From: an uncultured virus (IMG/VR IMGVR_UViG_2875535316_000004)
Lineage: Duplodnaviria; Heunggongvirae; Uroviricota; Caudoviricetes
Length of the DNA stretch: 64,000 nucleotides
Strand: one strand, 5' to 3'
Virus record (IMG/VR): IMGVR_UViG_2875535316_000004
The stretch's first letter is position 1. Each line of letters opens with the position of its first letter. The translations under genes were made by a program, and so were the position numbers. The notes beneath the pieces are model-generated. The model made no database searches. It saw only the letters and a program-made list of their open reading frames with translations, and was not told where the DNA came from. This document shows positions 6,279 through 60,155 of this stretch, piece after piece.

Positions 6279-6642
6279 AGGTGAACTCCTGATCGCGGTA
6301 GGGCCAAAGGCTGACCGTGACGTGGTAGGTGCCCGGCGCCGAGAATTCCAGCTCGATGTCACTGCCGTCAGCGGTGTAGGTTTCGCTCTCGATGTTGACG
6401 GTGGCACCTTCGTGGACCCCCTTCAACCAGTGCCCTTGGAGAACCGCCCCCATCTGGGGGCGCTCCTTGAGCATCTGGCCAATGACGAAGTGTTCGGCCG
6501 GCCGTGCCGGTGTGGCCACCTGGATGAAAGGCCGGTCGGTGTTGAGCCTGATGATCTTCTTCCCGTGTTCTGGCGGGCAGCTGACGACAAACACGATCCG
6601 GCCGTCAGTCTCATGGGCGGCAAAGTGCCCAATTTTGCTCAT
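6262..6642 (-). CDS. tail-associated hypothetical protein
   Basis: Translationally coupled downstream of the tail fibre gene. Confidence 0.65.
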   Translation of the reverse strand: MSKIGHFAAHETDGRIVFVVSCPPEHGKKIIRLNTDRPFIQVATPARPAEHFVIGQMLKERPQMGAVLQGHWLKGVHEGATVNIESETYTADGSDIELEFSAPGTYHVTVSLWPYRDQEFTFENSA

Positions 6643-9600: not shown

Positions 9601-12600
9601 GCCGCGTCCGTGGCGATCTTGTCCGTTACCGTAACCCACGCGCTGCCGTTCCAGCGTTTCGGCGTGTTGGCATTACCGGTGGTATCGATCCACAAGTTCT
9701 GCGCCAGGCGCTTATCCGCTGCAGGTGCGGTCGGTCCATAGATGACCTCACCCTTGGCGCCGGCCGCCGTAGCGGCTTCCTGCGCGGCCTGCTGGGCGGC
9801 GGTCACGCCTTGCTTGGTGGTGGTCAACCCACCTTCAAGCGAGACGATCGACTGCCCTTGCGACACCAGTCCCTGCTCGGTCTGGCCAACTCGGCCGGTC
9901 AGCAGGTTGGTGGCCGAGACGTTCGCGGCGATTTCACCTGCCGCAACCTGCCCATTGTCACGCCATCCCGTTGCGCGGGAACCGTACTCAGCCTGCGGCC
10001 TGGCCAGCTCCAAAGTGCCGTTTACAGCCGCTGCCGTCTGGCTGTGAACACGGAAATAGACGTTGAATCGAACAGCCCCCTCAGGGGCCACCGCCGTGAA
10101 CGAGTGCCGGCTACCTTCAACCGTGATCGGCATGAACCCGTTGGCCGGCGCCGAGATTACCGTGCCGGCTTCGTTTATCCACTGGTAGATGATGCGCAGG
10201 GCCAGCAAGCCCGCCTCCGCCATGCGGCGGGCGTTGACCGATGTGGTGACGCTCTGCCCGCCCGCTACCCTTGGCCGCTGGGTCGACTGGGTGACCAGCG
10301 AAAAATAAGGACTCGCGTTCGTGACGCCGGTGACCGCGACCCGAAACGCCCGCTCTCCCGCGTTCAACCAGGACGGCACCATGCTTGGGTTTCGGGGTGC
10401 ACTACCCTCCAGCACCCAACCATCTGGCACGTTGGCATCGGCCGCGCTGGCACGATTGAACGTGGGGTTGTACAGCAGGTTCTCCCCGCCCACCTCGGCG
10501 ATCGCGGCGTCAATCGCCGTCATCGCCTGACCTTGGGCGGTAATGTCCTGGCCATGCTGGGCGACCGTGTTGGACAGGTTTTGCACCGTCGACGCATCGG
10601 CCTTCTTTGCCACCTCGGCCAGCGCCGATTGGGCTGCTGCAGCTGCATCGGTGGCAACCTTGTCGCTCACTGCGACCCAGGCGCTACCGCTCCAGCGTTT
10701 CGGCGTATTGGCGTTGCCGGTGGTGTCGATCCACAGGTTTTGCGCCAAACGCTTATCCGCTGCAGGCGCGGACGATCCATAGATCACCTCGCCTTTGGCA
10801 CCTGCGGCTGTCGCTGCCGCCTGCGCGGCTTGCTGGGCAGCAGTCACGCCCTGATTGGTCGTGGTCAGACCGTTCTGCAAGCTGACGATCGACTGGCCCT
10901 GCGTGACCAGCTTGCCATCGGCGTCACTGACAGCACTGCTCAGGTTGGATACGGCTTCCGCCGAGGCCGCAATCGAACGGCGTCCCACCGCGATATAGGC
11001 AATGTCGATTTCGCCGGTGGTATCCGACGCACTCATCATGTCCAGACGAATCGCCAGAATGTTCTTGCCGTTCCAGCCTGCGTGGCCAGACAAGTCAATC
11101 TCAATATCCTGCCAGTCGGTCGTGGTGGTATTGATCGTCCAGGGCATGCGCCGGGCTTCGGCCAGCCCGCCATCTTCGTTCGCCCAGTACATCTGCGCGC
11201 CGGCGCGGGCCGTGTTACGCCGACGCAGCCGGATGCGCAGGAAAGGGTTCTCGGCGCCCGGGAACGTCGGGGTGAAGTTGCACTGCAGGTTAGGGCAGTT
11301 GCCAGACGTGGCGAACAGTGGGCCGGCAACAAAGGTCGAACCGCTGAGGGTACCGAACCAACCCCGCGTCGAACCGGTGAACTCCCAAGCCTTGCCGGCC
11401 ACGAACGACTGCGCGGCACTCAGGCTGTTCTTGAGCTGGGTGATGTCGCTGCTGTAGCTGGTCAGCACACCCTCGGCATTGCTGACGCGGTTGGTCAGCA
11501 GATTGACCGCCGACGCGTCGGCTTTGGTCGCGGCCAGCGCATTGGCGGCGGCGGCAGCGGCGGCGGCATCGGTGGCCACCTTGTCGCTCACCGCCACCCA
11601 GGTGCTGCCGTTCCAGCGCTTCGGCGTGTTGGCATTGCCCGTGGTGTCGATCCACAAGTTTTGCGTCAGGCGCTTGTCAGCGGCCGGCGCCGTAGCGCCA
11701 TAGATCACTTCCCCTTTGGCGCCGGCCGCCGTGGCGGCTGCCTGCGCGGCTTGCTGAGCGGCCGTCACATCCTGCTTGGTGGTTGTGAGGCTCGACTGCA
11801 GGCCGGTCATGGCCTGCCCCTGCGCACTCACAGCGCCTTCCACATCGGTTACCCGGGTGGTCACGCTCTGAACGGCCTGGGCATCCGCCTTGGTCTGTGC
11901 CACAGCCAGGGCATTGGCGGCGGCCGCAGCGGCGTCGGTGGCCACCTTGTCCGTAACCGCCACCCAGGTGTTGCCGTTCCAGCGCTTCGGCGTATTCGCA
12001 TTGCCGGTGGTGTCGATCCACAGGTTTTGCGCCAAGCGCTTGTCGGCCGCCGGCGCCGTGGCGCCATAGATCACCTCACCCTTGGCGCCGGCTGCCGTGG
12101 CGGCCGCCTGCGCGGCCTGCTGGGCGGCCGTTACGTTGCCATTGGTGGTGGTCAAGCCAGACTGCAGGCCCTCAATCTTGGAGGCTTGCGCCGTGCTCGT
12201 ACCGTTGAGGGTAGAAACGTCCGTTTCGACCTTGCCCACGCGCGTGGCGGTGCCGGCCGCCGTCACGATGGCCTGCCCAACATCGGTCCAGTAGGTCGCG
12301 TTCGGCGGCGGGTTGTTCTTCGGTACCGCTTTTAGCGCCTGATACAGCTTGCCATCGGCGCCCAGTACGCCCTGATTGAGCGTATAGGCCTTGTCCTTGT
12401 TGTAAGGCAACGAGCCGGCCAACGCGGACACGGTATTGATCTGCTGCTGCAGCTCGGACCGGGCCGCATCGACTTCCTGATCAACTGCCGCAAGCTGCTG
12501 TTGCAATTCATCACGAGCCGTCAATACCGACGATTTGACCGTCTCGACCGCGTTATTGACCTCGGAAACCTGCTCACTCAGCTGATTACGCGCCTCGTCC

Positions 12601-15179
12601 ACACGCTCGTTCACCGACCCGGGGCCATTCTTATCGATCAGATCAATACGGCTGAGCAGTTCCTTCCCCAGTTCGCTTTCGGTGATCTGATCCTTGATCT
12701 GCTCGAGGATCGCGCCAGCATCTGCGCTGGCCATTCCGGCAACCACTGCCGGGGCTACAGGGAAGAATGGGCCAAGGTTACTGGAACGATCGACCAGGCG
12801 AGCCCAGAAGTAGAACTGTTGGCCCGCGCGCAAGCCCTGCATCACGTACTCGTTCTGCGGGTAGGCCAGGTCTGCCAGCTTGGTGGCATTGCCCAAGTCT
12901 GTACCTTCGCTGTACCACAACTCGGTACGCTGGGTGTCGCTGGAGCCAGCAGGAAAGCCCCACTTGATGCCGATGCCGAACAGCAGGCTTTCCGTATCCA
13001 GGAAGGAAACAGCCGGCGGCAGGCCTTCCTTGCCATTCAGCTGAGTGAGGGTCGAGCTTTTCCAGATCGACGTAATGTCGAAGGAGCTCACAGCGCGTAC
13101 GCGTGCAAGGTAGGAACCCGCGTAAATGCCGACCACGTCTGCCGATGTTGCGCCGGTGCGCTGCAGGCGAACCCAGTTGCCGTTGTCCTTGCGCCACTCC
13201 ACGTCATAGGCGACAGCGCCCTCCACCGCCGGCCAGGCGATGGTCATCGTGCTGACCGCGATACCCTGGTCGATCATGTGGGCGGAAGACAAGGTCACGC
13301 TCGCGGGGGGCTGCACAGTGGTCACCGGGATAACGCTGATCGGGCGCTCGTCCAACTTGGCGCCGGTGTCGATCGCAGCGAACTTGCTCGGGTTGAACTC
13401 GAGCGCGGTGATCTCGTACTCCCCCTCTTGGGTGCGGGTTGTCTTCAGCACCCGGAACAGCTGTACCGCCAGGTCATGGTAATCGATTGCCCACTGCAGT
13501 TCCGGCTCGGGCTGCACGCCATACGCGGTCGTTACCGTCACCGCGCGGCCGGCCACCGACTGCACCGTGCGTGCCTGGGCGGTGCCGTTCGGCAGGTTCA
13601 AGATCAGCCGGTCGCCAGACTTGATCGGCGTGTCACGGTCCAAGGTCACAATGCGGCCGGCAGCCGCCGAGATCCGGCCGCCGTTTGGACGGCCCGCAAC
13701 CAGCTCGTCTGCGACGGGAATGACGTAGCCAGGCAGCGGAATGCGCCCTTCCATGCCGGTTTTGAAAGTGACGGTGCGGTCCTGGCTGTTACTCAGCAGC
13801 GCCCACTTGCCACGGCGCTGTGCCTCGGATGCACGGGTGCAGCCGATGGCCGAAATCTCCACCGGACGGTCTCGGTACCGGCGCTGGAGAGCGTTGTCGG
13901 TGACCGGGATGACATCTGTGTCGTAGTTGTTGGCCGGGTTGTCGTAGCTGACCAGAGCCCGGCTGTAGTGCGTGTTACGCTCGGCACCGCCGTATACGAA
14001 CTCACCGTCGATGACGTTGGCCCGGGTGAACACGTAGTCGATATCCTGGGCGCGCGGCATGTCTGCCTGCATGAACAGCGATCCATGGGCCCAGTACACC
14101 ATGCCCCGGTAAATCGCGGAGAGGTCGCGCAGCAAGGTCCAGGCTTCGGCGCGGCCCTGAAGGTTCATGTCGCACAGGAAACGCGCCTCCTGACCGCCCT
14201 GCCCATTCGGCACCTGCTGGTCGCAGTACTGGGCGATGCGGTACATCTCCCACTTATCGACCATCCACGACTTGATGCGTTTGCCCAAGCCAAAACGGTC
14301 CTCGACGCACAGACCGTAGGTCACAAACGCCGGGTTGTTGGTCCACGCCTGCTTGAAGGTGCCGTCCCATACGCCGGCATAGGTGCGCGCAACGGGATCG
14401 TAGTTGGTCGGCACCGGCCAGCGCTTGGCCTTGCACTTCACGGTTACCGCAGGGATGTTCTGGAACTGCTGGGCGTCGAACTCGATGTACAGCAGCGCGG
14501 TGTTCGGGTAACGCAGCTTCTGGTCGATGATCTCGGTGTAGCCAGCGATGGTCATCGTATCGGCCACGGTTCCGCTGTTGGCGTTCGGAGTGATACGGCG
14601 CACGCGCAGCATCCAGCCGGAGGTTGCCTTGGGTAGGTTGACGCGTACCGAGCGCTGGTAGCCGTTGGTGGTCTTGCCGTCCACTGCCCCCAGGTGCGCC
14701 TCGACATAGGCGCCACCATCGGTAGCGATATCGATGGCGTATTCAATGCGGTAGCCATTGGTATTGCCACTGCTGTCCTGCTGCGCCAGGCGCGGCCAGA
14801 CCATTCGCACGCGCACAGCCGAGAGCTGGGTGTTGCTTAGAGCACGGGCAAATGGATTGTCGCTGCGCAGCTCCACATTAACGGTGGTCTCGTTCTCGAT
14901 CGCAGGGATCCCCTGGATGTAGTCCTGCTCGACCGCGCCCGAGCGCCACTCCCACTGCACCCCAGGGAAATTCACGCTGCCGCTGGCATCCATGATCGGG
15001 GTGTTATCAAGGTAGATGTCACGATCCGTCGGCTCACCGTCGAACTCACCCTCCCCCACCGCAATCAGAATCTTGCCGATGTTGGTCGACTGCAGGCTAT
15101 CGGGCGCCTCTACAGGCGATTTCGGCTTGCTGCTGCCGCCCTTGGCGCCAGTGATATCCACGTGATCTGCTGGGCCCAT
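6639..15179 (-). CDS. central tail fibre/host specificity protein J (TipJ) with repeated modules (~2846 aa)
   Basis: GAKGG N-terminus, WTNNPA, FnIII-like region, internal repeats, DUF1983-like C-terminal region; start reassigned to MGPADH with GGAGG RBS. Confidence 0.92.
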   Translation of the reverse strand: MGPADHVDITGAKGGSSKPKSPVEAPDSLQSTNIGKILIAVGEGEFDGEPTDRDIYLDNTPIMDASGSVNFPGVQWEWRSGAVEQDYIQGIPAIENETTVNVELRSDNPFARALSNTQLSAVRVRMVWPRLAQQDSSGNTNGYRIEYAIDIATDGGAYVEAHLGAVDGKTTNGYQRSVRVNLPKATSGWMLRVRRITPNANSGTVADTMTIAGYTEIIDQKLRYPNTALLYIEFDAQQFQNIPAVTVKCKAKRWPVPTNYDPVARTYAGVWDGTFKQAWTNNPAFVTYGLCVEDRFGLGKRIKSWMVDKWEMYRIAQYCDQQVPNGQGGQEARFLCDMNLQGRAEAWTLLRDLSAIYRGMVYWAHGSLFMQADMPRAQDIDYVFTRANVIDGEFVYGGAERNTHYSRALVSYDNPANNYDTDVIPVTDNALQRRYRDRPVEISAIGCTRASEAQRRGKWALLSNSQDRTVTFKTGMEGRIPLPGYVIPVADELVAGRPNGGRISAAAGRIVTLDRDTPIKSGDRLILNLPNGTAQARTVQSVAGRAVTVTTAYGVQPEPELQWAIDYHDLAVQLFRVLKTTRTQEGEYEITALEFNPSKFAAIDTGAKLDERPISVIPVTTVQPPASVTLSSAHMIDQGIAVSTMTIAWPAVEGAVAYDVEWRKDNGNWVRLQRTGATSADVVGIYAGSYLARVRAVSSFDITSIWKSSTLTQLNGKEGLPPAVSFLDTESLLFGIGIKWGFPAGSSDTQRTELWYSEGTDLGNATKLADLAYPQNEYVMQGLRAGQQFYFWARLVDRSSNLGPFFPVAPAVVAGMASADAGAILEQIKDQITESELGKELLSRIDLIDKNGPGSVNERVDEARNQLSEQVSEVNNAVETVKSSVLTARDELQQQLAAVDQEVDAARSELQQQINTVSALAGSLPYNKDKAYTLNQGVLGADGKLYQALKAVPKNNPPPNATYWTDVGQAIVTAAGTATRVGKVETDVSTLNGTSTAQASKIEGLQSGLTTTNGNVTAAQQAAQAAATAAGAKGEVIYGATAPAADKRLAQNLWIDTTGNANTPKRWNGNTWVAVTDKVATDAAAAAANALAVAQTKADAQAVQSVTTRVTDVEGAVSAQGQAMTGLQSSLTTTKQDVTAAQQAAQAAATAAGAKGEVIYGATAPAADKRLTQNLWIDTTGNANTPKRWNGSTWVAVSDKVATDAAAAAAAANALAATKADASAVNLLTNRVSNAEGVLTSYSSDITQLKNSLSAAQSFVAGKAWEFTGSTRGWFGTLSGSTFVAGPLFATSGNCPNLQCNFTPTFPGAENPFLRIRLRRRNTARAGAQMYWANEDGGLAEARRMPWTINTTTTDWQDIEIDLSGHAGWNGKNILAIRLDMMSASDTTGEIDIAYIAVGRRSIAASAEAVSNLSSAVSDADGKLVTQGQSIVSLQNGLTTTNQGVTAAQQAAQAAATAAGAKGEVIYGSSAPAADKRLAQNLWIDTTGNANTPKRWSGSAWVAVSDKVATDAAAAAQSALAEVAKKADASTVQNLSNTVAQHGQDITAQGQAMTAIDAAIAEVGGENLLYNPTFNRASAADANVPDGWVLEGSAPRNPSMVPSWLNAGERAFRVAVTGVTNASPYFSLVTQSTQRPRVAGGQSVTTSVNARRMAEAGLLALRIIYQWINEAGTVISAPANGFMPITVEGSRHSFTAVAPEGAVRFNVYFRVHSQTAAAVNGTLELARPQAEYGSRATGWRDNGQVAAGEIAANVSATNLLTGRVGQTEQGLVSQGQSIVSLEGGLTTTKQGVTAAQQAAQEAATAAGAKGEVIYGPTAPAADKRLAQNLWIDTTGNANTPKRWNGSAWVTVTDKIATDAAAAAANALTVAQSKADASVVQTLSSKVSDNEGKLTTQGQSITGLQGSLATTNQNVTAAQQAAQAAATAAGAKGEVIYGATAPAADKRLAQNLWIDTTGNANTPKRWSGSAWVAVTDKVATDAAAAAQSALTEVAKKADASTVQSLTNTVTQQGQDLIAKGQALTAIDASIGDAGGENLLYNPAFTKVNAVDPNVPDGWTRDGAAQNNSSMVESWLNAGERAFRSALTGVTSGSPYLSLIPATTRRVKVGGSQSVTSSIYARRAATSGLLSLRLYIQWLNASGGVISAPFSTLNPVSVDGSRHTLTAAAPADAVAAVVYYRVHGATSTATNGTVELARPQVEYGSRASGWRDSGQVNAADNAATSAAVDNLTSTVNQQGSNLSSVAGRTTSLENSLATTNGNVTTAQQAAQAAATAAGAKGEVIYGSTAPAADKRLTQNLWIDTTGNANTPKRWNGSAWVAVSDKVATDAAAAAASALSQVATKAEASAVNSLTNRVNSAEGTLSSNSSDITQLKNSIGTAQPFVAGKSWEFIGSTLGWASTTAGSTFTAGPLFATISKWTNLQCNFTPAIAGAENPYLRIRLRRRNTTRAGAQMYWANEDGGLAEARRMAWTISLTTNDWQDIEFDLSGHAGWNGKNIIAIRLDMMNSVDSSGEIDIAYIAVGRRSAAASAQAVASLESNVTEQGGKLTAEGQRIDGLYTAVGDANAAIQNEAKARADGEGALSKQIQNTQASLGTTNASVQQVATAQADMKTMLNAQYTLRVQVNNQYGAHVFAGFGIGINSQNGIVQSAFVINADKFVLLNSSSGLSSPFSIVGGQTFVDDAYIRAASISNAKIADGAISNAKIANGAITAAKIGVAEIDTLRIRGNAVTVPVSASNPANLLGAGVGQWQNLIAVGVQMDEGGFITAQYSCYQGFGSGIRKYQFQMDINGLVIAEGGGDWADSFPNLMGSIGVAPGYFVITVKWWGENSGVGVKNHTLYAMGTKR

Positions 15180-15235
15180 GCTTTCCTCCGGGCAATAAAA
15201 AACCGCCCGGAGGCGGTCTGCTTGCTGAATCGGCC

Positions 15236-15823
15236 CTAGGCCTTGTCTTGCGCCTCGATCGAGGCAGAGATGATTGCCCCACCCCAGCGGCGTTCGCCGA
15301 TGCAAATCGGGACGGGGTTACCGCTGGCTGTGGTGTTCTTGGCGCTGCCGAAGGCGTACGACGGCAGGTTTTCAGGGGCGGCGCTCTGGGATAGTCCCTT
15401 GGCCTGGGGGCTGAGCATCTGCACAACTCCGCCCAGCGTCATAGAAAGGCCAGCATAAAATGCAGACGGGCCTAGCCATATGGAGGACACCATCAAGGCT
15501 ATGCCAATGATGGTTTGAAGAATCCCACCGCGTTTGCTGCCATGAACAACCGGCACGATTCGAACTTCCTGTGTGCCTCGAAGGCTCATTTGGTCCGGGC
15601 CAATGTTCTTTCGATTACGAAAGATGGCAAAGCGCAATCCCAGCCCATCGAGTCGCCGAATTTCCTCTTCGAAACCTTGCAGGGTGGATTGGAGAGCTTT
15701 GAAAGCTTCCCAAGTAGCGCCGCTCTCAAGCTGACGACGATGCGTTCGCCCAAACTTTCGAGCCAAGGATCCCGATAGTTTGATAATAGTCATCGGCTGA
15801 TAGTAAGCCGCTGTGGCTGCCAT
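15236..15823 (-). CDS. tail assembly protein I
   Basis: GSKRGG.LQ, SYAFG..NTTASGNPVP, GGAIISA motifs. Confidence 0.88.
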   Translation of the reverse strand: MAATAAYYQPMTIIKLSGSLARKFGRTHRRQLESGATWEAFKALQSTLQGFEEEIRRLDGLGLRFAIFRNRKNIGPDQMSLRGTQEVRIVPVVHGSKRGGILQTIIGIALMVSSIWLGPSAFYAGLSMTLGGVVQMLSPQAKGLSQSAAPENLPSYAFGSAKNTTASGNPVPICIGERRWGGAIISASIEAQDKA

Positions 15824-34537: not shown

Positions 34538-34942
34538 TCACTGCAGCGCCTCCAGCAGTGCGCCCATGGAGTGGTAAACGCCTTTTGCCCCTTCCGGCTC
34601 GTAATCGGCCCGTACCCGGTATCGGGCATCGGCAGCCATGGCCACCACGAGCACCGGGAGGCCTCCGGCAAGCTCCAAAGTCAGCGACTCAATGTCTGCC
34701 GGGTTAACTGCCAGCCGTGTACGAGGAAGGATCAGCACCAAGCTGGAGCACCTGAGCAGATCCTTGTGCACGGTTGAAACGTGATCCCAGCTGCCGGCCT
34801 CCTCGAAGACGTCACCGTTGCGCATCCGCACCTCGAGGACTGGCGAGTAATTCACAGTGAAGATGAAGACCGCGCTTATCTGCTCGATGAACTCCTTGGT
34901 TGCCATGCCTGGGAGGTAGGGCTGTCGTGCCGGATTTCTCAT
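34538..34942 (-). CDS. hypothetical protein
   Basis: Coupled to upstream recombinase; start uncertain. Confidence 0.45.
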   Translation of the reverse strand: MRNPARQPYLPGMATKEFIEQISAVFIFTVNYSPVLEVRMRNGDVFEEAGSWDHVSTVHKDLLRCSSLVLILPRTRLAVNPADIESLTLELAGGLPVLVVAMAADARYRVRADYEPEGAKGVYHSMGALLEALQ

Positions 34943-36228
34943 TTCGAATCCTCGCTTATGGTTGATTCCGAAATGTCGGCGCAGCCCGCGCCCTGCAAGG
35001 CCTCGGCGGAGTTACCTGAATACACGGATCTAAAGTGGGTCAAGCCGCGAATCATGGTGAAGCCTTTATGATCAAGGTGTGCATGCCACTTCTCCAGCGC
35101 CTCGCGCTTGCGGGCCATCATGTCGGACTGGATGTACACCTTCACGTTGTGCCCCATGGCATGGTTGACCAGCAGTTCGCCCACCAGGTGGTCAACGCCC
35201 AGGTCAGCCCAGCAAGTGCGAGCCAGCTTGCGCAGGTCGTGGCTGGTCCACTCGCCTTCACTGATGGCTTCGAACACCGTCCACGCTTGAACCTCTCCCA
35301 GCGGCTTGCCCTTCCTGCCCGGGAACAGGAACTGGCCGTCATAATCCTCGCTGCGCTGAATCTCGCGATAGGCCATAAGCACGGCGCATACCGGGGCGGT
35401 CAGTGGCAGGCGATGTTGGACGCGGGTTTTGGTGTGCTCGGCCGGAATGAACCACTCCCGCTCAGCCAGGCTGATATGGCTCCATCGAGCCATGCGGGTC
35501 TCGGCCAGACGCGTTCCATGGAACAGCATCATCAACGCCAGCACGCCATGTTGCGGGTTTTGGGCTAGCGTGCTGAGCAGGCGCGCTACCAGCTGCTCCA
35601 GGTGCACACCCCGCAGTCGGGATGGTTTGACTGTGACCTTGGCCTTGGAGAAGTCCCCGAAGCGGATACCTGCCATAGGGTTGGTACTGATCTTTTCGAG
35701 CTTGAAGGCCTGGCGGAAAGCCAGAGCCAGGAGCTGATACACCAGGCGCACGTAGTCGATCGACAGCGACTCCTGCAGCGGCCACATCAACTCTCGGTCG
35801 AGCAGCGCCTTGTCGATCTGAGCCAGCGGCGTTTCGCCCAGGCGCGGCATCAGGTGCTGTTTGATCGCCGACGCCGCCGTGCTCTTGCGCTTGGCCGAGA
35901 GGTTGCGGTCACGGGACATGCGCTCCGCGAACCAGGCCAGCAGCTCACCAGTCAGCACCCAGCTCGACAGGCTCGAACCCTCCCCGGCCTCCAAGCGCAG
36001 GCGGATATCCGGAAGCGCAGCGGCCACCTTGGCAGCGCTCAGATCCGGGTATGAGCCGATCAAGTTCCACTTGCCCTTGTGGATCAGGTACCAAGACCCG
36101 CGCTCGCGGGAGCGGTGGAACCGGAAGTACAGGCCGTGGTTGCCCAAGGCGCGCAGGTCACGCACCTGGCCGGCGGCCTGCCGGCGGATCTCTGCATCGC
36201 TGATTTTCACAGCGGCGGTATTGGTCAT
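34939..36228 (-). CDS. tyrosine recombinase in nin region
   Basis: GTRLAE (R), KT, HDLRK, NH, VY catalytic set; arm-binding-like N-terminus. Confidence 0.88.
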   Translation of the reverse strand: MTNTAAVKISDAEIRRQAAGQVRDLRALGNHGLYFRFHRSRERGSWYLIHKGKWNLIGSYPDLSAAKVAAALPDIRLRLEAGEGSSLSSWVLTGELLAWFAERMSRDRNLSAKRKSTAASAIKQHLMPRLGETPLAQIDKALLDRELMWPLQESLSIDYVRLVYQLLALAFRQAFKLEKISTNPMAGIRFGDFSKAKVTVKPSRLRGVHLEQLVARLLSTLAQNPQHGVLALMMLFHGTRLAETRMARWSHISLAEREWFIPAEHTKTRVQHRLPLTAPVCAVLMAYREIQRSEDYDGQFLFPGRKGKPLGEVQAWTVFEAISEGEWTSHDLRKLARTCWADLGVDHLVGELLVNHAMGHNVKVYIQSDMMARKREALEKWHAHLDHKGFTMIRGLTHFRSVYSGNSAEALQGAGCADISESTISEDSK

Positions 36229-36653
36229 GCTGCAACCTCCGTTTTTGGCAGAAGCAGGTAGGCCCGCAGCTGCTCCATGGCGTCGAAGTGCCCTCGGCAC
36301 ACGATGGCGAGATAGCCCTGATCATTCAGGCGCCGGATACACGCCTGTTGACTGGGCGAGACGGGCGCCGGGTCAACCGTCGCCTTGAATTCGATGTACA
36401 TGCCGAAGTAGCCGCCCCGAGCCATCGGCAGGACCAGATCAGGTATACCGGCCTTAACGCCCTGGTCTTTCAGCTTTTCAGCAACCTTCTTGTACCGGTG
36501 GCCGCCGTTCGGTACGTGGTAGATCAACTCGAAAACGTCCGGGTAGCGCAGCGCGATTTCTTCCATCAGCGCGGCCTGTTCTGGGCCTTCCCGGTCTACG
36601 GGCTTCGACCGAGGCTTCTTGGCCCTCACCGGCTTCATGATCGCCGGCTTCAC
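36225..36653 (-). CDS. VRR-NUC nuclease
   Basis: HVPNGG, GIPDL, IEFK, SPSQ. Confidence 0.88.
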   Translation of the reverse strand: MKPAIMKPVRAKKPRSKPVDREGPEQAALMEEIALRYPDVFELIYHVPNGGHRYKKVAEKLKDQGVKAGIPDLVLPMARGGYFGMYIEFKATVDPAPVSPSQQACIRRLNDQGYLAIVCRGHFDAMEQLRAYLLLPKTEVAA

Positions 36654-39314: not shown

Positions 39315-40121
39315 ATGAATGAATCACTGAGCCAGCGCATTAAGCGCTTGAGAAAAGCGACGGGAATGTCCCAGGCCCAGCTGGCAGATGCTTGCGGCTG
39401 GAAATCGCAGTCACGCGTCGGAAACTATGAAGCCGGTACGCGAGAGCCAACGCTGGCGGATATTGCCGCTATGGCAGCCGCCCTTGGAGTCGACCAATCC
39501 GAGCTGCTCCTGAACTCTGCGGCAGTGACCGAGGTATCGGCGCCCGCCCGGAGCACGACTGATCTTGTCAGGCAGATGCTCGCAAAGAGCGGCAAAGGCA
39601 TTCCGGAAGAGGCCCGTCAGCGCCTCCTTGCTGCGGCTGAAGAGCCGAGCGCCAGCCGTGTCGTCGCGGCTGACTTTGTTCGCCCTGGCCTCGTGGGCGA
39701 TGAGGTGTGGATTGCTCACTACGACGTGCGCGGAGCGATGGGCGATGGTGAAGTAGCTCACGACTTCCCTGAAATGCTGCAGGACATCCGCGTCAGCCCT
39801 ACTCACCTGCGAGAGATGGGGGTCGAGTTCAAGGAGCATTTCCATCTGAAGCTCATAACAGGTGTCGGTCAGTCCATGGCGCCGACCATCAAAAGCCGCG
39901 ACCCGCTGGTCGTTGACATCAGCATCCGTGAATTCGTGGGCGACGGGATCTATTACTTCTCACACCAAGGTCATCAGTACATCAAGCGCCTGCAGAAGAA
40001 AGGGCGCGACTATTTCAAGATGATCTCTGACAACACGAATCATCCACCTGAAGACATTCGGGTTGATGAGACCTATATCCAGGCCCGGGTGTTGCTGGTT
40101 TGGAATGCCCATCTGGTGTAG
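39315..40121 (+). CDS. CI-like repressor (HTH + S24 peptidase)
   Basis: HTH; GQSMAP serine and YIKRL lysine; no RBS so possibly leaderless. Confidence 0.93.
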   Translation: MNESLSQRIKRLRKATGMSQAQLADACGWKSQSRVGNYEAGTREPTLADIAAMAAALGVDQSELLLNSAAVTEVSAPARSTTDLVRQMLAKSGKGIPEEARQRLLAAAEEPSASRVVAADFVRPGLVGDEVWIAHYDVRGAMGDGEVAHDFPEMLQDIRVSPTHLREMGVEFKEHFHLKLITGVGQSMAPTIKSRDPLVVDISIREFVGDGIYYFSHQGHQYIKRLQKKGRDYFKMISDNTNHPPEDIRVDETYIQARVLLVWNAHLV

Positions 40122-40480: not shown

Positions 40481-42481
40481 ATGGATGGATCCACAGGGTT
40501 TGTTCCAAGGGAGTTTTCTGGTACAACCAAAATCACTGACAGAGGCATACGAAATCACTTTAGCAAGTCAGTATCCCCTTGGAGGCCCCTGGCTGAGCTA
40601 ATTTGGAACGGGTTCGATGCGAAAGCTAAACATGTGACCGTCAACATTGATACAAACAATCTTGGCGGTGTTGAGTCCATCACTGTTCTAGATGATGGTC
40701 ACGGAATTGATGTCGACGGTAGCGACTCTAGCTTCTTTAACTTCCGTGACTCTAAAAAAAAGAGATCACATGACGTTCATGGTGAAAAAGGTATCGGGCG
40801 CCTATATTTTCATAAAATATGCAACCGCGCTGATTGGTACACAAAATCTTCCGGGATAGATGCAAAACTTACTGTTCATAGCGCCGCACTGGACAAGGTT
40901 GAAGCCTCCACAATTCCGTCAGGCAGCCAACATGCATTACTTTCAAATTTAGTCTCGGGAACTTGCGTAGAGCTGACTAGATTCTCTGAGCCATACCTTA
41001 GTCACGAAAATATTGTCAAATGCCTGTCTCTTGAATTTGGCTGGTACTTAGCAATTAACCCTAGCAAAACCATAACTTTGAATGGAGAAAAGATCCTACC
41101 TCCAGATCATAGATCAGCAACAATCTCACTAAACATTGATGGTCAGCTTTTTGAGGTAAAGCTGATTCATTGGGCAGACAAGCCTACTTCGGGAAAGTCA
41201 TACATTTACTACACCTCCTCCAAAGACAAAGTCGTAGACTACGCCCTCAGTAGCCTCAACCAAAAACCGGGTTATCACACAACTCTCGCAGCACGCTCAG
41301 CTTGGTTTGACGCATCCGAAGTCGATAATGATAGCCTAAACCTGTCGTTTGACACATTGACACAGACCAAGATATGGAAATCCCTGCAAAAGCAAATTAG
41401 TGACTTCGGTCAAGAACACTATAAGAAATTTCTTGTTAGCAAAGCCGACGAGCAGCTAGAACAACTCGAGATAGATGGCGAGCTGCCCAGCTTTGAAGGT
41501 GCAAGCAAAGGATATGCAGAATGGCGATTAGGCCACCTCAAAAATATACTTCGAGTCATTCTAATATCCGACCCAAAAGTATTTAAAGACAGTAATAAAA
41601 AACAGAGAAAACTTGTAATAAGATTATTGGACAGGCTCGCCATCTCCAATGAGAATGATGCCATATTCGAGGTTCTCGAAAGCGTACTCGATTTGGATGA
41701 CTCCTCTATGCGCGTTTTCTCTGATCAAATTAGAACAGCGAAACTGAACAACATCGTTAGCACCATCGAAAAACTTCAGCGCCGTGAAGACGCTATATCT
41801 AGAATTTCTGAAATCATGCTACACCACTACAAGGACGTTCTTGAAACCCCTGACCTACAGGGTGTAATTGAGGCGAACACGTGGCTCTTTGGAAGCCAAT
41901 ACGAAACCATTGGCGCAGAAGAGACTACCTTTACTAAAATTGCTCAGAATTTACGAGATAAAGTAAAAGGAATCGACCACGTCTCCGAAGATGATGTTGA
42001 AGATGGTGCAACTGTAGCCGGAGCAAATCGACAAACAGATCTTTTTCTGGTTAGGCGCAGCATGCAGCATGACTCAATAAACAATCAGCCTTATTTCAAA
42101 TGTGTGATCATTGAAATCAAGCGCCCCAGCATTGCGCTCAATAAAAACCACCTGCGACAAATTGATGATTACGCCGGAATATTGGCTAAGCATCCGAGCT
42201 ACCAGGGGATTCAAACCAGATACGAAATAATCCTGCTCGGCCGTAAAATCTCGGCAGTTGATTACGACATTGGAGAAAGACTTGAGCAGCTAGCAGACAG
42301 AAACGACCCCGGACTGGTTGGAGCTGGTTTAATCAAAAAGTATGTGAAGACGTGGCAGTCCATCGTCGAAGAGTTTCGTTTGTCGAATCATTATTTACTC
42401 AACACACTCCAGAGTCAGCGCGATGTGTTAGAGGAGTCCAAGGTTGAGTTGCTCACCAATCTGCAAGCTGGTGCCCACTGA
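40481..42481 (+). CDS. GHKL ATPase fused to PD-(D/E)XK nuclease, candidate defence protein
   Basis: ELIWNGFDA, DDGHG, GEKGIGR, GT boxes; C-terminal TDLFL..IEIKRP..QIDDY; AT-rich. Confidence 0.82.
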   Translation: MDGSTGFVPREFSGTTKITDRGIRNHFSKSVSPWRPLAELIWNGFDAKAKHVTVNIDTNNLGGVESITVLDDGHGIDVDGSDSSFFNFRDSKKKRSHDVHGEKGIGRLYFHKICNRADWYTKSSGIDAKLTVHSAALDKVEASTIPSGSQHALLSNLVSGTCVELTRFSEPYLSHENIVKCLSLEFGWYLAINPSKTITLNGEKILPPDHRSATISLNIDGQLFEVKLIHWADKPTSGKSYIYYTSSKDKVVDYALSSLNQKPGYHTTLAARSAWFDASEVDNDSLNLSFDTLTQTKIWKSLQKQISDFGQEHYKKFLVSKADEQLEQLEIDGELPSFEGASKGYAEWRLGHLKNILRVILISDPKVFKDSNKKQRKLVIRLLDRLAISNENDAIFEVLESVLDLDDSSMRVFSDQIRTAKLNNIVSTIEKLQRREDAISRISEIMLHHYKDVLETPDLQGVIEANTWLFGSQYETIGAEETTFTKIAQNLRDKVKGIDHVSEDDVEDGATVAGANRQTDLFLVRRSMQHDSINNQPYFKCVIIEIKRPSIALNKNHLRQIDDYAGILAKHPSYQGIQTRYEIILLGRKISAVDYDIGERLEQLADRNDPGLVGAGLIKKYVKTWQSIVEEFRLSNHYLLNTLQSQRDVLEESKVELLTNLQAGAH

Positions 42482-42550
42482 TTCTTGTGCTTAACCCAGC
42501 ATCAGGATTGTTGTTTCTGCCCTGACCGTCTTGGCGGGCTTTTTCATGCC

Positions 42551-42640
42551 TTCACGCTTTTTTCACGCCCTACCCTGCACAGTTACGGCGCTCCTTGTGA
42601 GACTCCCTTAGCCCGCCCTCCCCAGCGGGCTTTTCTTTGC
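42551..42640 (+). repeat. unit 1: regulator box + -10 + short transcript + terminator
   Basis: TTCACGCTTTTTTCACGCCC..TGCACAGT..AGCCCGC/GCGGGCTTTTC; paralog at 43273. Confidence 0.7.
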
Positions 42641-42700
42641 ATGCGTGATGGCTGATGGCCAGAGTGGTAGGATGGCAGCTCAAGTCACAGGGAGGTCGCC

Positions 42701-43249
42701 ATGCTTCGCAACATCCATACGTTTCTTCTTGCTGCCGTCGCCGTCGCTTGTGCCGCCGGACCTCAAATTGCGCAGGCCGGATCGGACCTAATAGGTAAAC
42801 GCGTCCAGAACAACTATGACGTGACCCTGTACCTGGATCCCGAGAAAGGCTTGGCCTATGCGTTGAAAGACCCCAAGTTTCAGCGCTATCACATTAGGCC
42901 GCGCAAGATGAAAATCAGCTATGCGATGGATAAGGTCGAAGCGTCACCCATATCAACGCCGGCCGAGCCTGTGGTTGTGGAAATGGCTGCGATGCATGAG
43001 CGCAAGCTGGCCGAGATGAACCTGAGCGAAGAAGATCAGTGCTACGAGGCTTTTACCGCCGTGCTCGGCCGGCTGGTTTTCTCGGCCGCCTCAGCCAAAA
43101 ATCTTCAAGACGAAGAGTATTTCCATCTTGCGAACGTCATCACACTCGATGATGAAAAGGTGCCAGGCGCCCCTGGAGTGATCACCTGCAAGATTCCCGA
43201 TCACGGTTCAATCTTCATGTATGCAAGAGCACAGATCAGCACCGACTAA
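42701..43249 (+). CDS. exported hypothetical protein
   Basis: GGAGG RBS, signal peptide ending AQA, upstream TG-TAGGAT -10. Confidence 0.7.
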   Translation: MLRNIHTFLLAAVAVACAAGPQIAQAGSDLIGKRVQNNYDVTLYLDPEKGLAYALKDPKFQRYHIRPRKMKISYAMDKVEASPISTPAEPVVVEMAAMHERKLAEMNLSEEDQCYEAFTAVLGRLVFSAASAKNLQDEEYFHLANVITLDDEKVPGAPGVITCKIPDHGSIFMYARAQISTD

Positions 43250-43272
43250 CCCTCAGCGCTGAGGTTCGGCCT

Positions 43273-43362
43273 TTCACGCTTTTTTCACGCCCGACCCTGC
43301 ATTGTGACGGCTCATCCGCTTCCCTACGTTTAGCCCGCATAGCAGTGCGGGCTTCTCTTTGC
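43273..43362 (+). repeat. unit 2: regulator box + -10 + short transcript + terminator
   Basis: Identical 20-mer, TGCATTGT, AGCCCGCA/TGCGGGCT hairpin. Confidence 0.7.
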
Positions 43363-43379
43363 TTGATGCTCGCGCCGGA

Positions 43380-43580
43380 TTATACAGACCACTGGATCAA
43401 AGCCCTGTTGGCCGTACGAACCATCTCGAGCCACTCGCCGTGCGATACCTGACGGCGATGCTCCAGGTTCGCAGCCTCAAGCGGCGCCCGATCGTACGCA
43501 GCTTCATCGAGAACGGGCCTACGCATGTGCCGGGACAGCCATGTGATAAATGCTGCAGAGCGGGTTTGGGTGCTATTCAT
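43380..43580 (-). CDS. hypothetical protein
   Basis: GGAGGAG RBS. Confidence 0.55.
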   Translation of the reverse strand: MNSTQTRSAAFITWLSRHMRRPVLDEAAYDRAPLEAANLEHRRQVSHGEWLEMVRTANRALIQWSV

Positions 43581-43675: not shown

Positions 43676-44002
43676 TTAGAACGGCGCCTCTTCCTCCGCC
43701 TTCTCATCCTCCCAATCACGCTCCACGACCAAGTCGTCCCGATCTTCAGCGCTCTGCGCCTCCCACCGCACCGTCACGCTCTCGTCGTCATTGAACGTCA
43801 GGTCCAGCTCAGGCGTTTCAGCCAGCAGCCCCATCACCTCCTCCCACTCCATGTCTCCATCCGTGTCCAGGCGATGAATCGTCACCCAACGCTGCGACTG
43901 CGCAATCGGGTGATTGATCATCGACGAGACCCGCAGCCCGAGCCGCTCTACCCCGGTCATCTCTTGGCGTCCTTGTTGTGCCGTCTTCTTCTGCTTGGAC
44001 AT
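43676..44002 (-). CDS. DUF1654-like protein
   Basis: ERLGLRVSSMINHP.AQ; acidic tail. Confidence 0.7.
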   Translation of the reverse strand: MSKQKKTAQQGRQEMTGVERLGLRVSSMINHPIAQSQRWVTIHRLDTDGDMEWEEVMGLLAETPELDLTFNDDESVTVRWEAQSAEDRDDLVVERDWEDEKAEEEAPF

Positions 44003-56501: not shown

Positions 56502-57563
56502 ATGCGCCCCCGGAGCACAGAGAACAGGGATTTGCCGCCGGGCGTGTACCGGCGCAAGCGCACCAGTAAAAGCAAGAAGAACCCCGACAAGGCGTGGATC
56601 AGCTACTACTACCGCGACAAGGACGGAAAGGAAATCCCCCTGGGCACAGACCTGAGCCTGGCCAGAATGAAATGGGCAGAGCTGGAAGCCCGTGAAAAAC
56701 CGCGTGACTTGCTTCTGATGGGGGCGATCTTTGATCGCTATGAGCGAGACATTATCCCCAAGAAGGGCGAGCGCACGCAGAAAGACAACCTGGCGGAGCT
56801 CCGCCAGTTGCGGCCGTTCTTTGAGAAGGCCCCGATTGAAGCAATTTCGCCAGCGCTTGTAGCTCAGTATCGAGACGCCCGGTCGGCGCCGGTACGCGCA
56901 AACAGGGAAATCGCCCTGCTCTCCCACTTTTACAACATGGCGCGGGAATGGGGCCTGACGATGAAAGAGAACCCCTGTCAGGGTGTTCGCAAGAACAAGG
57001 AGGCTCCACGGGACTTCTATGCGAACGATGCGATCTGGAGCGCGGTTTACGCGAAAGCAGTGGGTGAGCTAAAGGATGCCATGGACCTGGCGTATTTGAC
57101 CGGCCAGCGTCCGGCGGACGTGCTGGTGATGAGGAGGGATGACATCGAGGATAAAGCCCTCGGCGTAAAACAGAAGAAGACCCACAAGAAGCTGAGGATC
57201 ATGCTTGAGGTGGACGGGGTTGAAAGCGGCTTGGGTGCGTTGATCAGGAAAATGTTGGCGCGGAACGCGCCGCATGGATCGCCATACCTGCTTCTGACCG
57301 AGTCAGGAAAACGCGTAACCGCCGCCATGCTCCGACATCGCTGGGACGATGCCCGGGAGGAAGCAGTGAAGGAAGCAGTAGCCGCTGGCGACCAGGTTCT
57401 GGCTGGCCGTATCAGCCAGTTCCAATTCCGAGACATCCGCCCCAAAGCAGCGTCCGAAATCGTCGATGTCGACCACGCCAGCCTGCTGCTGGGCCACACT
57501 AAGGGCGACATTACCGAGCGGGTTTATCGCCGAGTTGGAGCCTTGGCGAAACCCACCAAGTAG
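56502..57563 (+). CDS. int: prophage integrase
   Basis: TGQR, RDIRPKAAS, LLGH, VY; adjacent to att. Confidence 0.92.
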   Translation: MRPRSTENRDLPPGVYRRKRTSKSKKNPDKAWISYYYRDKDGKEIPLGTDLSLARMKWAELEAREKPRDLLLMGAIFDRYERDIIPKKGERTQKDNLAELRQLRPFFEKAPIEAISPALVAQYRDARSAPVRANREIALLSHFYNMAREWGLTMKENPCQGVRKNKEAPRDFYANDAIWSAVYAKAVGELKDAMDLAYLTGQRPADVLVMRRDDIEDKALGVKQKKTHKKLRIMLEVDGVESGLGALIRKMLARNAPHGSPYLLLTESGKRVTAAMLRHRWDDAREEAVKEAVAAGDQVLAGRISQFQFRDIRPKAASEIVDVDHASLLLGHTKGDITERVYRRVGALAKPTK

Positions 57564-58703: not shown

Positions 58704-60155
58704 ATGGAATACCAAAAATTTATCAGCAAGTTTGAATACAAGCTATGGCTGAAGCTAATTCCAACTGTGAGAAACGGGCGAAAAACTTTTAGATTCGCTT
58801 CACTAAATAACATGCAAGACCAATTCCTAGACAACTGGGTATATAAACTCAGTCGAGACTATTCGTATCGCACAGTCAAAACTTACTGCTATGCCATAAA
58901 AACTTTTTTAATTTATATCTATACCCTAATCGATCTGGAAGGCGGCATTAGCAATCAACGACTTCAAGAAGCCTTACACAGCTATGAAAGCTACCTTGTA
59001 TTTGGCGTCTCAAGCGATTCTGAGATTGCAAAAAAAGTAGCAATGATAGTAGGTAGCCCCATGCTCGTAGCTGCCTCCGTAATTACAAACCTAGCTGCAG
59101 TCAACAAGTTCATTGATGCTAGCGAGCAACTTCGCCGCGCTCTTGACGAGCTGGAATCTAAAGGCGCTATCGTCTCACGAGACCTTGTGGGTTTTTCACT
59201 TGAGACCTCTGTCGGCACATCTGTCACCAGCACTGTTAGAGCTGCTCTAAGACGCAACACATGGCTTGGAGCATGTATTGCTGGAGGCGCTCATAGAATA
59301 AAGCGAGCTGGCCTTCGCGCAGAATCAAGAGTTCCTGAAATCGCTTACATGGATGAGTTTGGCGGTGATGAGAAGGCATTCCCAATTGATAAATGCGCTG
59401 AATTGATCGATTCGGCACCATCACTTAGAGATAAAGTCCTTTGGAGTCTGACTGCTGCAAGCGGGTGCCGTATCTCAGAAGCACTGAACATGCTGAAAGA
59501 TGACATTGTCTTTAAAGAAAAAGAGCTACACGAGAAAAAAATATTTATAGTCGACCCTGCTACTCGCAGGGACAAGCTCATCGAATACATTCCGGAAACC
59601 ACAATCAATGAACTATCGTATAAAGGCCGCGACAAACCTGACACGTTCTTGATTGAGCCGTTTGCCTCGATCTTCTGGATGCACTTGGCTGAGTATCTTA
59701 TTGAAGAAAAGAACAAAGACAGACTACGAGGAGGGACTTGCCACCACTCGTTTCTAATTCGAAGCATTACAGAGGGTACGCCGATGTGTCTTTCCTACCA
59801 ATCACTAATAGAAAGATTTCAAAAAGTTGCCCTTAAGATTGCGGGTAGGAAATATGGTTTTCATAGTCTTAGACACATGTATGGTTATTACTTGGCTAAT
59901 CACTGCCCAAACCCGAACCCTAACAATCGTCGAGCATTTGGCCTGGATTTACATTTAGTGAAGCAGTACATGGGGCATCGAGACATCGCCACAACTAAGA
60001 AATACGCTAGAGAGGACGCCCAGATGCTCCACGCAGCAATGGCTGCATCTAACCTGATTAGAATGGGCGGTGGCCCTCAGACAGTAAGACAAACACAAAT
60101 TATTTTCTTAAAGCAAGAACTCCAACGTCTTGAAAAACTGGAAGAAGCCGCATGA
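58704..60155 (+). CDS. tyrosine recombinase (GmtY/TnpA-like)
   Basis: LRD..SGCRISEAL, HSLRH, MGH, TTKKY. Confidence 0.88.
   Translation: MEYQKFISKFEYKLWLKLIPTVRNGRKTFRFASLNNMQDQFLDNWVYKLSRDYSYRTVKTYCYAIKTFLIYIYTLIDLEGGISNQRLQEALHSYESYLVFGVSSDSEIAKKVAMIVGSPMLVAASVITNLAAVNKFIDASEQLRRALDELESKGAIVSRDLVGFSLETSVGTSVTSTVRAALRRNTWLGACIAGGAHRIKRAGLRAESRVPEIAYMDEFGGDEKAFPIDKCAELIDSAPSLRDKVLWSLTAASGCRISEALNMLKDDIVFKEKELHEKKIFIVDPATRRDKLIEYIPETTINELSYKGRDKPDTFLIEPFASIFWMHLAEYLIEEKNKDRLRGGTCHHSFLIRSITEGTPMCLSYQSLIERFQKVALKIAGRKYGFHSLRHMYGYYLANHCPNPNPNNRRAFGLDLHLVKQYMGHRDIATTKKYAREDAQMLHAAMAASNLIRMGGGPQTVRQTQIIFLKQELQRLEKLEEAA

Follow-up and report, generated by a model that had tools for sequence, protein, structure and literature searches.

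Twin ColR-box-type units in a lambdoid prophage: candidate genes for short, terminator-ended RNAs

Small RNAs (sRNAs) under the control of envelope-sensing two-component systems include OmrA and OmrB, activated by EnvZ–OmpR, and MgrR, activated by PhoQP; these enterobacterial RNAs are 80–100 nt long. Other sRNAs are carried by prophages or genomic islands, namely DicF (Qin), IpeX (DLP12), AgvB and AsxR (prophages of enterohaemorrhagic Escherichia coli) and the horizontally acquired, PhoP-activated PinT. Phages also carry morons, described by Hendrix and colleagues as autonomous promoter–gene–terminator units between phage operons; these are protein-coding. This article examines two short repeated units in a 64,000-nt stretch of DNA from an uncultured virus of the Caudoviricetes (IMG/VR record IMGVR_UViG_2875535316_000004; ‘the window’), which by its gene content is a lambdoid siphovirus-type prophage. 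Each unit combines a box resembling the binding sites of the Pseudomonas regulator ColR, a −10-like hexamer and a short stretch that ends in a terminator.

The preferred reading, given a probability of about 0.55, is that each unit is a self-contained sRNA gene, in which a class-II promoter activated by phosphorylated ColR (ColR~P) would yield a ~50-nt RNA made of a seed and a terminator, with the twin form arising by insertion of a moron. The observation itself is real, and conservation among relatives strongly supports the anatomy of a promoter followed by a terminator; from there, we infer ColR binding, RNA production and pairing in trans. The units would share with OmrA/OmrB and MgrR an envelope-stress promoter of the OmpR family, a seed at or near the 5′ end and a Rho-independent terminator, all predicted here from the sequence. 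They differ in having no sequence relationship to these RNAs, in length and in being prophage-borne. Like DicF, IpeX, AgvB and AsxR, the predicted RNAs would be short, prophage-carried regulators expressed in the lysogen; like PinT, they would be foreign sRNAs coupled to a host two-component regulator. Unlike any of these, they come from a different genus, show no homology to them, sit at one constant site next to the immunity region and have chromosomal relatives that share the promoter design. Compared with classical protein morons, the conserved element would be an RNA gene, in effect a minimal non-coding moron, and also the joint at which protein morons are exchanged.

The ColR-type box and the anatomy of the twin units

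The ColRS system is described in published abstracts as conserved in the genus Pseudomonas, and controls lipid A/lipopolysaccharide (LPS) remodelling, metal tolerance and polymyxin resistance. For P. putida ColR, a 16-bp consensus, (T/C)(T/C)NA(C/G)NN(T/C)TTTTT(C/G)AC, has been reported (Kivistik et al., 2009, PMC2689224). It was built on seven footprinted sites, all of which contain the T-run, and 41 sites were predicted in P. putida. Three of the seven read TTCAC-NN-TTTTTTCAC, like the boxes described here. Close matches are those at PP0737 (TTCACGTTTTTTTCAC), PP3766 (TTCACACTTTTTTCAC) and PP0035 (TTCACTATTTTTTCAC); the first differs from the 16-nt core of the window boxes at a single position. 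An earlier note on this DNA, made from the sequence alone, had given this consensus correctly as printed, and the box fits it at 16 of 16 positions in both units. The known ColR promoters and the units share the consensus and its TTCAC direct repeat; the former are chromosomal promoters of protein genes, whereas the units are prophage-borne and are followed only by a predicted ~50-nt terminated RNA.

The units form two direct repeats of ~95 bp at positions 42551–42643 and 43273–43365, offset by 722 bp, which differ in their middle parts and flank a gene for a 182-residue secreted protein. A repeat search resolves them into two families of direct repeats, one 39 nt long with 90% identity and one 36 nt long with 75%, each with a spacing of 722 bp. 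The elements that the earlier note had listed (an identical box, a −10-like hexamer, a pyrimidine-rich segment and an AGCCCGC terminator) are all present in each copy. Unit 1, on the plus strand like unit 2, starts with the box TTCACGCTTTTTTCACGC (TTCACGC-TTTT-TTCACGC; 42551–42568, 16-nt core 42551–42566). Its −10 hexamer CACAGT (42578–42583) lies 9 nt past the 18-mer and 11 nt past the core, and is followed by the body GCGCTCCTTGTGAGACTCCCTT, by the hairpin AGCCCGC/GCGGGCT (42610–42631) and by a T-rich tail, TTTCTTTG. The RNA predicted from it, termed type D, spans 42588–42640 (start ±3; ~50 nt) and consists of an unpaired segment, GCGCUCCUUGUGAGACUCCCUU, the terminator hairpin and a U-rich tail. 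In unit 2, the identical 18-mer (43273–43290) precedes the hexamer CATTGT (43300–43305), again by 9 nt; the body reads GCTCATCCGCTTCCCTACGTTT, and the same hairpin (43332–43353) is followed by a weaker, interrupted tail, TCTCTTTG. Its predicted ~50-nt RNA (43310–43363) is of type A, the canonical phage form, with unpaired GCUCAUCCGCUUCCCUACGUUU, terminator hairpin and tail UCUCUUUG. Each unit contains just short overlapping open reading frames (ORFs), in line with the claim that no ORF lies inside; this does not extend to the interval between them, where the ORF for the 182-residue protein (42701–43249) begins with a signal peptide.

The box consists of two 7-bp direct repeats separated by four T’s, with a period of 11 bp. 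This architecture is the design of PhoB/OmpR-family sites. In the 64-kb window, a 20-mer of the units has two matches at up to three mismatches (0.00 expected), the ColR consensus YYNASNNYTTTTTSAC two (0.03 expected; both are the units), and TTCAC-N6-TTSAC two (0.12 expected), so that a chance origin of the twin boxes is excluded. A scan for the sigma-70 consensus called no promoter at the units. They do show the features of a promoter at which an activator replaces the −35 element (class II), namely a hexamer with A2 and T6, a fixed distance between box and hexamer, and no −35 consensus; A2 and T6 are the two most important positions of a −10 element. Both hairpins were scored as terminator-like by a terminator scan, and both units have the GC-rich hairpin and U-run of an intrinsic terminator, the run being interrupted in unit 2. 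Taken together, the window box reads as a ColR-type site, and ColR is the best candidate for its regulator.

In the proposed mechanism, the phosphorylated form of ColR, the OmpR-family regulator of the host ColRS system, which senses membrane stress and an excess of Zn, Fe, Mn or Cd, would bind the direct repeat TTCAC-N6-TTCAC. The repeat would stand in for the −35 element, with ColR recruiting sigma-70 RNA polymerase by class-II activation, as at a PhoB box, to a weak −10 hexamer that lies 11 nt further on. Transcription would start ~7 nt past the −10 and stop at the AGCCCGC/GCGGGCU terminator. The product would be a ~50-nt RNA with a mostly unpaired, pyrimidine-rich 5′ stretch of ~20 nt followed by the terminator hairpin, most likely acting in trans by base-pairing.

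Relatives in prophages and on Pseudomonas chromosomes

The exact 18-mer occurs at 44 IMG/VR loci, with a complete unit at 42 of them. A search with the body sequence CCCTACGTTAGCCCGC, which is independent of the box, returned 45 loci, 43 of which are units; the exact 18-mer is kept in 30 of these 43, and the ColR consensus is fitted by 36. Divergence from the consensus of the 43 units is lowest in the −10 (0.8%) and the box (4.2%), compared with 9.5% in the spacer; it reaches 10% immediately after the −10, 11% immediately before the box and 28% farther out on that side. In an alignment of 55 sequences, the hexamer never varies at A2, and conservation of T6 is at least 90%. The studied region is also contained, with 100% identity, in an IMG/VR provirus record of 58,981 bp (G001). 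A BLAST search of a phage collection with this region gave no match, and one of plasmids a single match of 54 nt.

Four types of unit can be distinguished. Type A comprises unit 2 and units from about 40 prophages; its −10 is CACAGT (CATTGT in unit 2 itself) and its body reads GCUCAUCCG, 2–4 variable nucleotides, then UCCCUACGUU. Type D is represented in IMG/VR by this phage alone (unit 1; CACAGT; body GCGCUCCUUGUGAGACUCCCUU). Among the other related units, types B and B′ have TATGGT and a body beginning with CAGCUCCUAG, and type C has TATTCT or TATTGT and a body beginning with CAGCUCCUUC. All four types share the 18-mer, the 9-nt distance from it to the hexamer and the terminator, with 81–86 nt from box to terminator. 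A relative of unit 1 in a metagenome (locus L307) has GCUCCUUGU and the terminator loop in common with it, and differs in the spacer and the hexamer (GATAGT). The spacing, whose loss in homologues the earlier note had named as a refuting outcome, is conserved in every homologue examined, so that the unit withstands this check. The arrangement of a box at a fixed distance from a −10, with a short terminated RNA-like stretch next to it, is backed by the comparison and by the literature on ColR sites. The idea of seeds that vary behind a conserved box and terminator fits only between types, of which there are four or more; within type A, the middle part is highly conserved across the phage lineage.

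Nor are twin units the usual form. In prophages of the P. putida group, the module is almost always single-copy and at a fixed place, and among the 44 loci two units occur only in L022/L023, which represent one contig of the same phage (99–100% protein identity). Related loci share a constant layout, in which up to two variable genes separate cI from the unit downstream and no more than one lies between the unit and a convergent DUF1654 gene. The cI proteins of the relatives, where detectable, are 28–99% identical to that of the window, and the box is unchanged beside them. Named hosts all belong to the P. putida group: P. inefficax, P. soli, P. guariconensis, P. folii, P. bharatica and Pseudomonas sp. 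286. BLAST with the type-A unit found it in five of 401 Pseudomonas species genomes, and a further genome matched the box alone; 11 of 109 matches in the genome collection are units. One genome (G004) carries three type-A units, on contig C167 at 39743–39832 and ~51167, and on contig C150 at 1683–1771. The two on C167 are ~11 kb apart, which may reflect multiple related prophages or a second slot. The same genome encodes a regulator ~100 bp from the published PP0900/colR site, matched at 24 of 24 positions; the regulator is therefore identified as the colR orthologue.

The family extends to chromosomes. BLAST with a type-C unit (L216), which sits in a non-phage context between a solute-binding-protein (SBP) gene and a convergent PrpF gene, gave matches in 104 of 401 Pseudomonas genomes, for the most part at chromosomal positions and often two per genome; this tally includes one genome flagged as unpublished (G377), and the weaker matches span the terminator part alone. 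In all 30 chromosomal places examined, TTCAC-N6-TTCAC ends 11 nt before TAnnnT, with both half-sites exact in 28. The hexamer is mostly TATGGT, and (C)CAGCUCC begins 5–6 nt later; the 5′ end CAGCUCC is found in 26 of the 30, with variants in the other four. Seven of the 30 fit the ColR consensus at all 16 positions. Two chromosomal units (L218 and L219) lie between an SBP gene and PrpF and face the convergent gene, and several others (L224, L226, L244) lie directly upstream of a co-oriented glyoxalase-family gene. Further contexts include LysE, DUF2388 and superinfection-immunity genes and an integrase.

A glyoxalase gene also provides the link to a characterised ColR site. The PP3766/gloA site has been footprinted and shows increased affinity for ColR~P, and its regulation by ColR is positive (PMC2689224). 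The published site is found in 10 of the 401 genomes; in all ten, the 16-mer is followed after 11 nt by CAGTAT and then by a ~90-nt stretch with two hairpins, the second of which leads into a T-rich tract ~90 nt upstream of the glyoxalase start codon. The ColR-bound PP3766 site therefore has the same geometry, and the same layout of a short terminated RNA, as the phage units. In the ten genomes (L248–L257), the RNA-like stretch between the ColR site and the glyoxalase gene begins with ACAGCUAAAGGACUAGC. The AAGGA loop of its first hairpin resembles an RsmA/CsrA binding motif. Type A (AGGCUCAU) and the start region of PP3766 (AUGAGCCU) match over 8 nt; this was discounted as too common a start context.

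The box itself has a wider distribution. At Vibrio loci, the exact 18-mer lies 9 nt before GATCAT, upstream of a gene for an OmpR-family regulator and opposite arnC/arnT-like genes; the best homologue of this regulator in two Pseudomonas genomes has 45–46% identity (192–195 bits, against ~150 for the next). In G004, this homologue is the regulator beside the PP0900/colR site, so the 18-mer precedes the closest Vibrio homologue (46% identity) of a colR found in a genome with type-A units. In other Gammaproteobacteria, the 18-mer stands in a conserved context, TTCACGCTTTTTTCACGCCTGTCGAGACGG..CTCACGG..CTATAAATG, upstream of a small gene, and it is also seen in promoter-like contexts of Alphaproteobacteria and Clostridia (genome and metagenome loci such as L061, L065, L067, L080, L126, L130, L131, L267, L313 and L355). 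The box may be read by related regulators far outside Pseudomonas.

The predicted RNA and competing explanations

The predicted RNA of unit 1 folds with −14.3 kcal/mol (z −1.9); its 5′ part is unpaired in the centroid structure, and the minimum free energy structure adds a weak 3-bp helix. That of unit 2 folds with −16.3 kcal/mol (z −2.9), with a 5′ part of ~20 nt unpaired in the centroid, followed by the terminator hairpin. The seeds had been described as anti-Shine–Dalgarno. This holds for unit 1, which carries the anti-Shine–Dalgarno-like GCUCCU(U) common to the chromosomal family with the 5′ end CAGCUCCU, and less clearly for unit 2 (GCUCAUCC..UCCCUACG), where the seed GCUCAUCCG..UCCCUACG is phage-specific. 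The phage thus appears to combine a seed that resembles that of the host family (GCUCCU) with one specific to the phage lineage. With Rfam 15, the best scores at the units are 17–22 bits against thresholds of 35–50; CRISPR-DR28 (21–22 bits, threshold 35) and the Betaproteobacteria toxic sRNA (17–18 bits, threshold 50) were rejected as sub-threshold chance matches. Units of other loci (L216, L076, L110, L215) gave no Rfam match either, and no type matches any family; the only match in the window at gathering score is a group II intron.

A number of observations weigh against the units being ColR-driven sRNA genes. Concerning the regulator, the consensus T-run is missing from 23 of the 30 chromosomal relatives, which have one to three mismatches, all of them within it; the consensus is also broken in seven of the 43 body-found units, one related RNA body (L202) has no box, and the presence of colR was examined in G004, a genome other than that of the window’s host. 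Concerning the transcript, both window units have a weak −10 hexamer (CACAGT, CATTGT), the terminator tail of unit 2 is interrupted, and the terminator stems are almost invariant among relatives, so that covariation is uninformative. The units drew no reads in three RNA runs with the same species label; one run (X1) is probably DNA, and the set is no test of expression. Concerning targets, the window contains no antisense copy of either seed beyond the units themselves, and the best duplex in a scan of the whole window (−31 kcal/mol) falls inside the interval obtained with shuffled seeds (−28 to −36). The two-block complement AGGGA-N2–6-CGGATGAG, searched for in five genomes of the host group, picked out only the units and one SDR gene start, at chance level. 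A search for 9-mer complements, with 18–31 matches per strand per genome against 6–19 for the control, was uninformative.

Two other explanations are both rated unlikely. In the first, the unit would be a leader or attenuator, with a ColR-type promoter serving conditional read-through of the terminator into a downstream gene (ORF182 in the case of unit 1) and the short RNA as a by-product. The glyoxalase-associated chromosomal units mentioned above fit such an arrangement, as do the 14 of 44 units that precede a co-oriented gene for a variable exported protein or lipoprotein; these morons, however, have their own conserved promoter-like sequence, GCGTGATGGC..GGCCAGAGTGgTAGGAT, past the terminator. 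At PP3766, a promoter fusion responded to ColR (PMC2689224) although, in the ten genomes, a terminator lies between box and gene; if the fusion spanned the terminator region, this suggests some read-through. On the other hand, the adjoining gene is convergent at unit 2 and in at least eight related units, and chromosomal L218 and L219 likewise face such a gene; since no co-oriented gene follows, an RNA made there cannot be a leader. The RNA body is also conserved whatever follows it, both in type A and as CAGCUCC in the 26 chromosomal places. Because units abut convergent genes, a trans-acting sRNA is preferred, with read-through at unit 1 allowed for.

In the second, which leaves the short RNA intact, the box would be read by another regulator, be it a different OmpR-family protein of the host with a TTCAC half-site or a phage-encoded protein. 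Such a host regulator is possible because the T-run, present in all seven footprinted sites, is absent from the 23 chromosomal relatives; the ColR consensus rests on just those seven sites, and each Pseudomonas genome searched encodes more than 20 homologous regulators. Against this stand the full fit of the window boxes and their near identity to footprinted sites, as well as the published finding that ColR binds and activates PP3766, a site with this architecture (PMC2689224).

Less probable still is that the units have no RNA function and are conserved terminators plus mosaic-boundary sequence kept by recombination between phages, the resemblance to ColR sites being incidental. The flanking sequences are mosaic, with morons exchanged precisely at the unit position, and type-A units are ~95% alike, so part of their conservation reflects recent common descent. 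Yet types A–D and 30 chromosomal relatives retain both half-sites, the spacing of 11 nt, A2/T6 and the 5′ end of the RNA while the sequence between these elements changes, box and −10 diverge less than their surroundings, and a boundary sequence needs no 16/16 match to a regulator site. A cI/Cro operator (the box is a direct repeat, has no copy at the cI–cro region and is identical beside cI proteins of 28–99% identity), an attachment site (integrase genes lie elsewhere) and a coding function of the unit (no conserved ORF) were rejected.

If the units are transcribed as predicted for sRNA genes, ColRS would gain an sRNA arm comparable to OmrA/B for OmpR and MgrR for PhoP, the units would offer a clear example of a prophage that wires a non-coding gene to a host two-component sensor, and they would suggest that the classic ‘PP3766 promoter’ be re-read as an sRNA promoter. 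A broader and rather doubtful proposal is that a Pseudomonas family of ColR-box sRNAs (~50–90 nt, in about a quarter of the sampled species) forms a missing post-transcriptional arm of ColRS, captured by P. putida-group prophages beside their immunity region; it could re-tune the envelope of the lysogen (LPS or receptor genes), or the ColR sRNA network of the host, when ColRS fires. The consulted text of PMC2689224 names no sRNA at ColR promoters, and titles and abstract openings on ColRS give no link to sRNAs. Literature searches found nothing relevant linking ColR, prophage and sRNA, no paper pairing PP3766 with an sRNA, and none containing the unit sequences, the supplements of PMC2689224 with the 41 predicted sites lying outside the search.

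Moron exchange and the prophage setting

The gene between the units (ORF182; 42701–43249, plus strand) encodes the 182-residue secreted hypothetical protein. It matches no Pfam, PHROG or PADLOC family; its homologues form 19 clusters, in which all source names given are those of hypothetical proteins from Pseudomonas. The promoter-like sequence lies at 42644–42673 (plus strand), with an extended −10, TGgTAGGAT, at 42665–42673. With a GC content of 51–57% against about 61%, and terminators on both sides, the ORF182 cassette has the attributes of a moron as far as its sequence indicates: its own predicted promoter, a terminator, a lysogeny-side position and atypical composition. The promoter-like sequence follows units directly in the window (42644–42760) and at L002, L012, L014, L016, L031, L033, L034, L036, L039, L040 and L045. 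Several of the exported proteins share the signal peptide MLR(N/H)IH(T/R)FLLAAV and have unlike mature parts, which looks like a moron slot with a mosaic boundary inside the signal peptide.

The suggestion that the repeats serve as swap points for the enclosed gene is supported by locus L036, where the units mark the point of moron exchange. This locus has the same ATPase gene upstream (98% identity), a single type-A unit, the moron promoter and a different secreted protein of 141 residues; downstream of the moron gene, the terminator tail occurs a second time and leads into the sequence found immediately 3′ of the unit in L028, L044 and L070. The twin form is best read as insertion of a cassette (type-D body, terminator, promoter and ORF182) before a resident type-A unit, with the left joint probably in the shared box/−10 region; recombination within this conserved region of the resident unit would have produced it. 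The unit marks a precise slot for the exchange of exported-protein morons between phages. A small palindrome, CCTCAGCGCTGAGG (43251–43264, plus strand), lies between the ORF182 stop codon and unit 2.

Upstream of the units, a lysogeny-side operon that heads towards them opens with a cI-like repressor gene (39315–40121, plus strand; helix–turn–helix and S24 peptidase domains, Pfam HTH_31/Peptidase_S24, phrog_4). Directly 3′ of cI, in a position that corresponds to rex-like defence genes, lies a moron-like gene for a GHKL ATPase of 666 residues (40481–42481, plus strand; HATPase_c_3, phrog_6203). Its stretch has a GC content of 42–49% against ~61% for the phage, and PADLOC gives a weak match to REase_II (type II restriction enzyme). 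A terminator, AAGCCCGCCTCGGCGGGCTTTTTCATGCC, precedes the unit in most related loci; the window has a degenerate copy, GCCC..GGGCTTTTT, at 42519–42544 (plus strand). On the other side, a convergent 66-aa gene (43380–43580, minus strand) has its 3′ end just past unit 2 and has homologues at the same position in L006, L015 and L037. It is followed by the DUF1654 gene (43676–44002, minus strand; PF07867), the conserved right-hand neighbour, which lies 3′ of the unit on the opposite strand in most related loci.

The structural genes (terminase, portal, capsid, tape measure and tail tip) are on the minus strand, as are the replication genes O and a DnaC-like gene (Pfam, PHROG). The GpJ-like tail tip protein (6639–15305, minus strand) is unusually long, at 2888 residues; Pfam recognises in it just an FNIII-A_GpJ domain at the N terminus and a tail-tip fibre domain at the C terminus. 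Adjoining the tail-fibre end of the prophage is the group II intron (4183–5976, minus strand; Rfam D1–D4 and domain V/VI matches), with an ORF for a reverse transcriptase/maturase of 449 residues (4257–5606). Near the prophage end, an Acyl_transf_3 gene of low GC content (47%; 2090–3163, minus strand) may encode an O-antigen acetylase for lysogenic conversion. Three tyrosine-recombinase genes are present, at 34939–36300 (minus strand), 56502–57563 (plus) and 58704–60155 (plus). The last sits in a block of 45% GC at 58–64 kb, together with a 1131-aa ORF that matches no Pfam family; this block is perhaps a second mobile element adjoining the prophage.

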